Of a stretch of 64,000 nucleotides of DNA, positions 58,025-58,599 are shown in pieces. Position 1 is the stretch's first letter; every line of letters begins with the position of its first letter. The notes below the pieces were generated by a model that worked only from the letters and a program-made list of their open reading frames with translations, had not been told where the DNA came from and did not search any database. The translations under genes and the position numbers were made by a program. Source of the stretch: Longimicrobiales bacterium. GTDB lineage: Bacteria > Gemmatimonadota > Gemmatimonadetes > Longimicrobiales > Gaopeijiaceae. Where the stretch lies: the NCBI GenBank assembly GCA_965198065.1, contig CBDAON010000004.1, forward strand, positions 1,664,001 through 1,728,000, read 5' to 3'.

Positions 58025-58039
58025 CCCTCTCTCCAGACT

Positions 58040-58200
58040 CGGGAGGATGATCGTGCATCGTCCTACCTTGCAGATCCGGGCTCCCTCGGCCCCAACAACT
58101 GTTCGGACTCATCACGATCTAGAAGGGACGGCGCCCACGCTAACAATCGGTCTCTAGGACCCTAGGCGGGACGGGCTACCGACCCTGTGTACCCAAGAAA
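58040..58200 (-). ncRNA. IS110 bridge RNA (boundaries approximate)
   Basis: two large internal loops with inner hairpins; guides GTCCCGCCT/ATTGTTAG and ACAGTTGTT/TCTGCAAG. Confidence 0.8.
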
Positions 58201-58599
58201 CTACCTATTCGTCGTCATACAAGGCGGTGGTTGGGGCGCGTGGGCGTCGAGACACTATTCATCGAGCCGGGAAGTCCGTGGGAGAACGGCTATAACGAGA
58301 GCTTCAACGGCAAGCTCAGGGACGAGCTGTTGAACGGGGAGATCTTCTGCTCGTTGGCGGAGGCGGCCGTGCTGGTCGAGCAATGGAGGCGCGAGTACAA
58401 TACCGTCCGACCCCACAGCGCCTGCGGCGGCCTCCCCCCTGCCCCTGAGGCGATTAAGCCGTCGCCCTGGTTCCTGAGGATGCCCGTCCTTCACGGCCCT
58501 CCCCAGGTCCTGGGACTAACATAAGATGTGGTACCGCTCTTGGGGGCAGGTCACTGTCCGCAGCCAGTGACGAAGTCGTGAAGCCTCACGTCGCTACCC

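Follow-up and report, generated by a model that had tools for sequence, protein, structure and literature searches.

A truncated IS110-group element with a predicted two-loop bridge RNA in a Longimicrobiales genome, and the insertion sites of its intact relatives

A 199-bp stretch in front of a truncated transposase gene of a Longimicrobiales bacterium raises the question of whether it encodes a bridge RNA, as used by RNA-guided IS110 recombinases, and whether the copy that carries it could still act. The window, that is, the whole stretch of DNA analysed here, comprises 64,000 nt of contig CBDAON010000004.1 (assembly GCA_965198065.1, positions 1,664,001 to 1,728,000). The initial annotation had read an IS110 bridge RNA with a target and a donor loop from the letters of the window, and every motif that it named is present on the minus strand at the positions it gave. 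On this strand the region extends over 199 bp from the CT core at 58223 to the ATG of the recombinase at 58024, and the open reading frame (ORF) that follows carries PF01548. The region is laid out as follows:

58222..58223, minus strand: CT core at the left end of the element, where identity to the intact copy begins
58223-58217, minus strand: left end CT-TGTAT, read from the sequence
58217..58221, minus strand: right donor arm TGTAT, read from the sequence and conserved among orthologs
58214..58219, minus strand: -10-like hexamer TATGAC, whose -35 partner TTGAGT, 17 bp away, would be supplied only by the right end in a circle
58125..58185, minus strand: predicted target-binding loop with outer stem and inner hairpin, from loop folding, covariation and a covariance-model match
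58185-58173/58136-58125, minus strand: stem of the target loop, read from the sequence
58161-58149, minus strand: inner hairpin of the target loop, read from the sequence
58177, 58172, 58153 and 58148, minus strand: conserved A/G anchors of the target loop, from the ortholog alignment
58049..58119, minus strand: predicted donor-binding loop, from loop folding, covariation and a covariance-model match
58119-58105/58063-58049, minus strand: outer stem of the donor loop, read from the sequence
58092-58078, minus strand: inner stem of the donor loop, read from the sequence

Three copies of the element are present in the genome (G000; 4 contigs, 3.05 Mb, 67% GC). The window copy measures 833 bp and is identical over 833/833 positions to the start of a complete 1160-bp copy (C4:2684404-2683245), which begins with CT-TGTAT and ends with ACAGTTG-CT followed by AACAAC, so that the donor ACAGTTG-CT-TGTAT proposed by the initial annotation is reproduced exactly. 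All 18 right ends that were recovered finish in CT. The third copy (L002, G000:C4:2057428-2058572) lacks most of the left end, which is cut just 5' of the right donor guide beside another transposase-like gene, and ends with CT-AACAAC; it carries a 132-bp tandem duplication and a frameshift from a 2-base insertion in a C run, defects that may reflect decay or sequencing error. A second genome (G004) contains 10 full copies at 99% identity with identical loops, and records titled Longimicrobiales contain 16 loci at 99%. The intact protein of 320 aa has both PF01548 (N-terminal DEDD domain) and PF02371 (C-terminal) and aligns to IS621 and ISCro4 with an E-value of about 1e-41, with D11, E53, D95, D98 and S233 in register, which bears out its assignment as an IS621-type recombinase ortholog. 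For IS621, D102 and S241 are named in the accessible text of the literature (PMC11208158, PMC11208160), and the remaining residue numbers were taken from the alignment. The gene extends to the right core, leaving no non-coding right end; the long left end with the RNA, the short right end and a donor flanked by an inverted match of only 1 bp agree with the IS110 group. The downstream RNA and the 7-17 bp sub-terminal inverted repeats of the IS1111-attC group were not found, the RNA lying upstream of the gene and no such repeats flanking the donor.

Folding by itself is weak evidence for a bridge RNA. The whole 199 nt fold with z = +0.53, and 138/200 shuffles fold equally well; folded singly, each of the two loops is marginal (z = -1.93 and -2.07, with 9/200 and 4/200 shuffles as good). 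Because the whole region folds no better than shuffles, the case is built on sequence comparison. The ortholog set comprised 80 loci, of which 67 were parsed (13 gave no parse) into 39 distinct left ends; 32 of these were aligned with the window (33 sequences), while seven were left out, namely four near-identical to the window as well as L057, L064 and L095. Over 24 stem pairs in 33 sequences, 93.6% of the cells pair, compared with 35-50% in slid controls, and both sides have changed in 18/24 pairs, a level reached by 0/500 shuffles; since the orthologs are related to each other, this and the other permutation and comparative counts given below overstate the support. A covariance model built from 28 more distant orthologs, from which the window and its four closest relatives were excluded, matches 58058-58185 with 99.5 bits (rough E 1.9e-21), and genome-wide it matches only the two full left ends. 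An Rfam search of the window returned tRNAs only and no match to a bridge-RNA family. The two stem-loops have internal loops, and their IS621-like A/G anchors are invariant in the aligned sequences. Covariation, the covariance-model match and the agreement between guides and sites described below thus confirm the prediction that 58025-58223 (199 bp) forms the left end of an IS621-type element of the IS110 group and would encode a two-loop bridge RNA. It is scarcely credible that the hairpins are instead ordinary end structures of an insertion sequence or serve translational control, being recognised by protein and matching the sites incidentally: the RNA was predicted from sequence alone and its full-length fold does not stand out from shuffles, as such a reading would allow, but the layout agrees with IS621 anchor by anchor and the loop sequences track each element's own target and donor, which is not expected of recognition by protein only.

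The guides within the two loops, in their initial and their revised extents, are:

58172-58164, minus strand: left target guide as first read, GTCCCGCCT
58164..58169, minus strand: working left target guide, CCGC-CT
58147-58140, minus strand: right target guide as first read, ATTGTTAG
58140..58146, minus strand: 7-nt right target guide, TTGTTAG
58138..58139, minus strand: putative target-loop handshake guide CG, placed by analogy with positions 81-82 of IS621, whose C could pair with donor G7
58102-58094, minus strand: left donor guide as first read, ACAGTTGTT
58095..58102, minus strand: left donor guide ACAGTTGT, equal to the intact right end ACAGTTG, whose final U would wobble with the core
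58074-58067, minus strand: right donor guide as first read, TCTGCAAG
58067..58075, minus strand: right donor guide ATCTGCAAG, likely discontinuous by analogy with IS621
58065..58066, minus strand: putative donor-loop handshake guide GT, whose G could pair with target C7 (T7 is C in 16/17 sites)

The donor guides pair with the joined ends of the element, and among the orthologs five donor-guide variants each have a matching 7-mer with CT near their own gene end, although the right ends of the orthologs were located using the guide, which renders this count partly circular. On the right side of the donor, the CT-TGTAT end matches with one G:T wobble as first read, but the guide is probably interrupted, reading AT, two unpaired bases, the G wobble and CAAG (58075-58067). 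In IS621 the right donor guide is discontinuous and the handshake bases come after the right guides, as described in the accessible part of that report (PMC11208158). The system is an IS110-group bridge system, and its 14-bp donor is already catalogued, letter for letter, by Durrant et al. (PMC11208160), whose supplementary files 5 and 4 contain it 424 and 188 times, respectively. The 9-mer of the left guide in the window occurs at least 4 times in the same supplement, and the three places shown are target flanks of other elements.

Insertion sites provide an independent reading of the target guides. The 29 loci of the element with at least 99% identity represent 19 different insertion sites; a left flank is available for 17 of them and a right flank for 18, and matches were scored against CT sites of the own genome as background. 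The core is short: CT is found at 16/17 left junctions (TT at 1/17) and at 18/18 right junctions, and the flanks diverge beyond it. On the left, T4, T5, T6 and T7 match the guide in 14, 10, 10 and 16 of 17 sites, and four further sites have A, a wobble, at T6, while T1-T3 match in 5, 3 and 4 of 17, no better than background. On the right, T10-T14 match in 13, 18, 16, 12 and 17 of 18 sites, with 11 of the 14 misses being G opposite a guide U, and T15 is matched in 0/18, at or below background. For the first 12 + 12 flanks, the observed match totals were reached by 0/100,000 random draws. The resulting consensus, about CCRC-CT-RACAA, agrees with the target first proposed (near GTCCCGC-CT-AACA) next to the core and on the right, but not at T1-T3.

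Since the flanks match at T4-T7 and not at T1-T3, the working left guide appears to be about CCGC-CT (58169-58164), shorter than the first reading of 58172-58164; pairing follows the expected scheme (left guide with the bottom strand, right guide with the top strand), limited on the left to T4-T9. G58172 is invariant in 33/33 aligned sequences and occupies the place of a protein-bound G of IS621, in which a flipped A and, five bases on, a syn G precede each guide, according to the accessible part of the structural report (PMC11208158). Because this anchor layout places both G58172 and A58147 outside the guides, in agreement with the site data, A58147 is best read as a linker, and of the right guide first read at 58147-58140 the 7-nt TTGTTAG (58146-58140) is retained, which would bear most of the target specificity. 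A perfect empty target is absent from G000, the best two sites matching at 10/12 positions.

Guides and sites also change together among the orthologs. After exclusion of L085 and L103, which have no flanks, 30 elements were kept, in which the right guide matches its own target at 137/150 positions compared with 77 after permutation (reached by 0/5000), while the left guide matches at 78/210 compared with 66 (62/5000). When the left guide was re-registered from the RNA alone, 97/189 positions matched compared with 65 (0/10000; 27 elements, L074, L047 and L080 being excluded). Seven orthologs with CT one base closer to the stem reach 37/49 left matches, and the 20 in the loop register of the window, which match mostly at T5-T7, give a weak left signal (60/140 compared with 51, 151/10000). 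Seven orthologs with other guides insert elsewhere. Handshake pairing with position 7 of the other substrate is possible for both loops in 30/30 orthologs, with little variation: the target-loop position is C/G in 30/30, an invariance that does not amount to covariation, and the donor loop could pair with T7 as G-C in 23, G-T in 5 and A-T in 2. Several left ends deviate from the common layout. A Dehalococcoidia ortholog (L091-L100) has a short left end without the 5' hairpin, and nine of its copies lie within one repeat family that matches their guides; L038 (about 1400-1500) is a 99% copy that has kept the donor loop and lost the target loop; L089 and L102 tandemly repeat the 5' end and the first half of the target loop; and in L095 the left donor guide is tandemly repeated.

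Because the guides match both the joined ends of the element and its insertion sites, we consider it highly probable (roughly 0.92) that the intact element moves by IS621-type RNA-guided recombination at the CT core and that the window copy is a broken relic. By analogy with IS621, excision would give a circle in which the -35 carried by the right end meets the -10 of the left end, whereupon the bridge RNA would be made and bind the recombinase. The donor loop would read ACAGTTG-CT-TGTAT and the target loop about CCRC-CT-RACAA, chiefly via the 7-nt right guide with G:U wobble, whereupon the top strands would be exchanged with the help of the handshake bases. The joined ends form a candidate junction promoter, TTGAGT-17-TATGAC, and in the joined form 18/30 orthologs have a -35 of at least 4/6 matches, compared with 0/30 in the integrated flanks; the other 12/30 have no good junction -35. 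A promoter-like site was not found in 57900-58900, and integrated IS621 has been reported to be weakly expressed by read-through as well (PMC13626964). Four metatranscriptome runs from two studies have contigs over parts of the left end and of the gene, with no circle joint among them; such contigs show neither strand nor RNA ends, so that this coverage is no evidence of expression.

The window copy itself lies between two remnants of an IS3-family element on the opposite strand:

57365..58024, minus strand: truncated IS110 recombinase ORF that is identical to the intact protein (320 aa) over 211 aa and continues for 8 aa in IS3 DNA
58224..58553, plus strand: IS3-family 3' remnant (rve_3) that flanks the insertion on the left and has many sibling copies at about 95% identity
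57266..57390, plus strand: IS3-family 5' remnant that carries the start of orfA and abuts the broken IS110 gene, from sequence comparison

The IS110 DNA ends at 57391, so the ORF has PF01548 as its sole domain of the two, retains D11, E53, D95 and D98 and lacks S233; the truncation of protein and right end noted initially is therefore real in the assembly. The copy has no right end, no -35 in its flank and no junction promoter, and can form neither a complete enzyme nor a circle. That it could act only in trans, as first suggested, is correct but moot, since the intact copy encodes an identical RNA, which any RNA from the window copy would duplicate, and no promoter was found for the latter; it is a dead duplicate. 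It probably entered an IS3 variant, after which 327 bp at its 3' end and 803 bp of the IS3 were lost together; both segments are missing here. A one-sided (half-match) recombination product, or an IS110/IS3 chimera of the assembly, is quite improbable as an alternative to insertion and deletion. Half-match events have been reported for IS621 (10.64898/2026.08.31.748434), 833 bp of IS110 stand in place of 803 bp of IS3, and the third copy carries its own tandem duplication and frameshift. Furthermore, all IS3 siblings among those listed have CG, not CT, at the insertion point of the window, and an uninterrupted IS3 variant sought in metagenome contigs gave 0 matches. However, the left junction lies exactly at the core, the flank CCGC matches guide positions T4-T7 like other sites, and CT would represent a synonymous change of an Arg codon in a 95%-identical IS3 variant. 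An early guess that the siblings read CT-AAC at this point failed, as they read CG-CACGG.

The intact element can be compared with known systems. Within the accessible text of the IS621 reports (PMC11208160, PMC11208158, PMC13626964), the likeness extends to the RNA in the left end, target and donor loops, A/G anchors of the same spacing, the CT core, a TGTAT right donor with a CAAG right donor guide, handshake pairs and a DEDD and Ser recombinase; for the junction promoter of IS621, a candidate is seen here. By contrast, the working left target guide is about 6 nt here and 9 nt in IS621, the right target guide is naturally 7 nt instead of 4, the target is dispersed and loose instead of a single REP sequence, and the stop codon is formed by the core T and AA/GA of the target in the absence of a non-coding right end. 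Longer right target guides are known in some orthologs, as stated in the accessible part of PMC11208160. ISCro4/IS622 (10.1101/2025.05.14.653916; PDB 9t56) is the best structural relative (E 1.4e-41) and, as far as the available text describes, recognises 14 bases in each substrate and has handshake guides; its protein is distant and its guides are different, and activity was shown there, whereas here the system is known from sequence alone. The closest named element in the plasmid collection is ISMno7 (annotated as IS110-like; 52.9% identity over 95% of the protein), which is listed in the tree table of Durrant et al. (PMC11208160). For the IS110 element ISPpu10 (10.64898/2026.03.19.712850), a target stem-loop is said in the accessible part of the report to add specificity; its insertions all lie in one repeat, whereas the 19 sites described here are all different. 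The element appears to be a further bridge recombinase ortholog, and its natural insertions are unusually informative: with 19 sites for a single guide set, specificity can be profiled at each position, and the profile shows a right guide of 7 nt in its natural state, tolerance of wobble and a left guide whose 5' part is hardly used. For the design of bridge editing, the profile is relevant to the question of how guide length depends on the register of the loop.

The first bases of many right flanks resemble the inverse core box of attC (RYY-TAAC), which the right guide would read. A tentative refinement of the main reading, to which we give somewhat less than even odds, is that the guides are tuned to integron attC sites and that the other scattered sites are tolerated off-targets. 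GTTA occurs 45-150 nt further on in 14/34 CTAAC flanks compared with 76/687 CTAAC sites of the own genome, and a hairpin test is passed by 2/11 family and 8/23 ortholog CTAAC flanks compared with 10/687 genome sites; this test is home-made and not a curated attC model. At six of the ten passing sites, the same strand carries additional hairpins of this kind at a distance of 0.6-1.25 kb, which corresponds to cassette spacing, and in G000 an integrase-like fragment has attC-like sites next to it. However, only 2/18 sites of this element pass, none of them belonging to the three copies in G000, and 7/18 right flanks do not begin with CTAAC. Neither G000 nor G004 has an integron integrase above the cut-off, the seven orthologs with other guides land elsewhere, and the AT-rich attC boxes may just be the commonest matches in GC-rich genomes. 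Overall, attC-like sites account for 2/18 sites of this element and 8/48 of the orthologs, and insertion specifically in attC sites, as in the IS1111-attC group, was thus not found by this home-made test. A stricter test by MFE pairing is passed by 5/34 flanks; a first test based on L-box geometry, in which real-looking sites scored low, was replaced. The members of the IS1111-attC group (ISKpn4, ISPst6, ISPa25, ISPa21; PMC11187229, PMC11616780) are likewise RNA-guided IS110-family elements found in attC sites, according to the accessible text, but have the RNA downstream of the gene and sub-terminal inverted repeats, whereas the element described here has its RNA upstream and only a minority of its sites resemble attC. 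A literature search, which covered little of the subscription literature, found attC targeting reported for the IS1111 group and no report for the IS110 group. In G000, C4:241900-246100 carries attC-like hairpins on both strands around a fragment resembling an integron integrase (103 bits, below the cut-off).

The target also completes the transposase gene, which has no stop codon of its own: the core T and the target give TAA (13) or TGA (5) at 18/18 sites. At the left end, a stop occurs within 8 codons in the frame of the transposase stop in 25/36 left ends, compared with 10 and 12 in the other frames. In the left ends L056, L069, L071, L075, L082-L085 and L088, the fourth codon after the core T is variously TGA, TAA or TAG, which looks like retention of a stop at this codon; the codon also overlaps the probable start of transcription. 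At the insertion sites, real gene ends are weakly enriched: with a threshold of 200 codons, long open frames end at 4/15 sites of the family (p 0.015; background 6.7%), but thresholds of 100 or 300 codons give no significance, and the orthologs show no enrichment (2/35). It is possible, albeit unlikely, that the lineage represents an IS621-type recombinase whose right-weighted target loop is tuned to TAA/TGA of gene ends and to attC inverse core boxes. Such an element would swap stop codons with its host, the target completing the transposase stop and the left end supplying a replacement within a few codons. It would be carried along inside gene cassettes, leaving both gene and attC intact, and its arrival at attC would be independent of that of the IS1111-attC group. 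The links to attC and to stop codons, which are partial here, would bear on the spread of such elements with gene cassettes.

Elsewhere in the window, the C-terminal piece of a different IS110-family transposase (PF02371) is located at 60528-61211 (plus strand), where the bridge-RNA model has no match. A Mutator-family transposase (minus strand) overlaps an IS3-family remnant (plus strand) at 50749-52618. A protein of 1332 aa encoded at 52774-56772 (minus strand) combines Ig-like Big_2 domains and leucine-rich repeats with an N terminus like that of a lipoprotein, and has a weak M66 peptidase-like match. An array of 18 tRNA genes, 17 of them on the plus strand and with anticodons mostly ending in G or C, occupies 46874-49237, within 2.4 kb of an IS-rich region.
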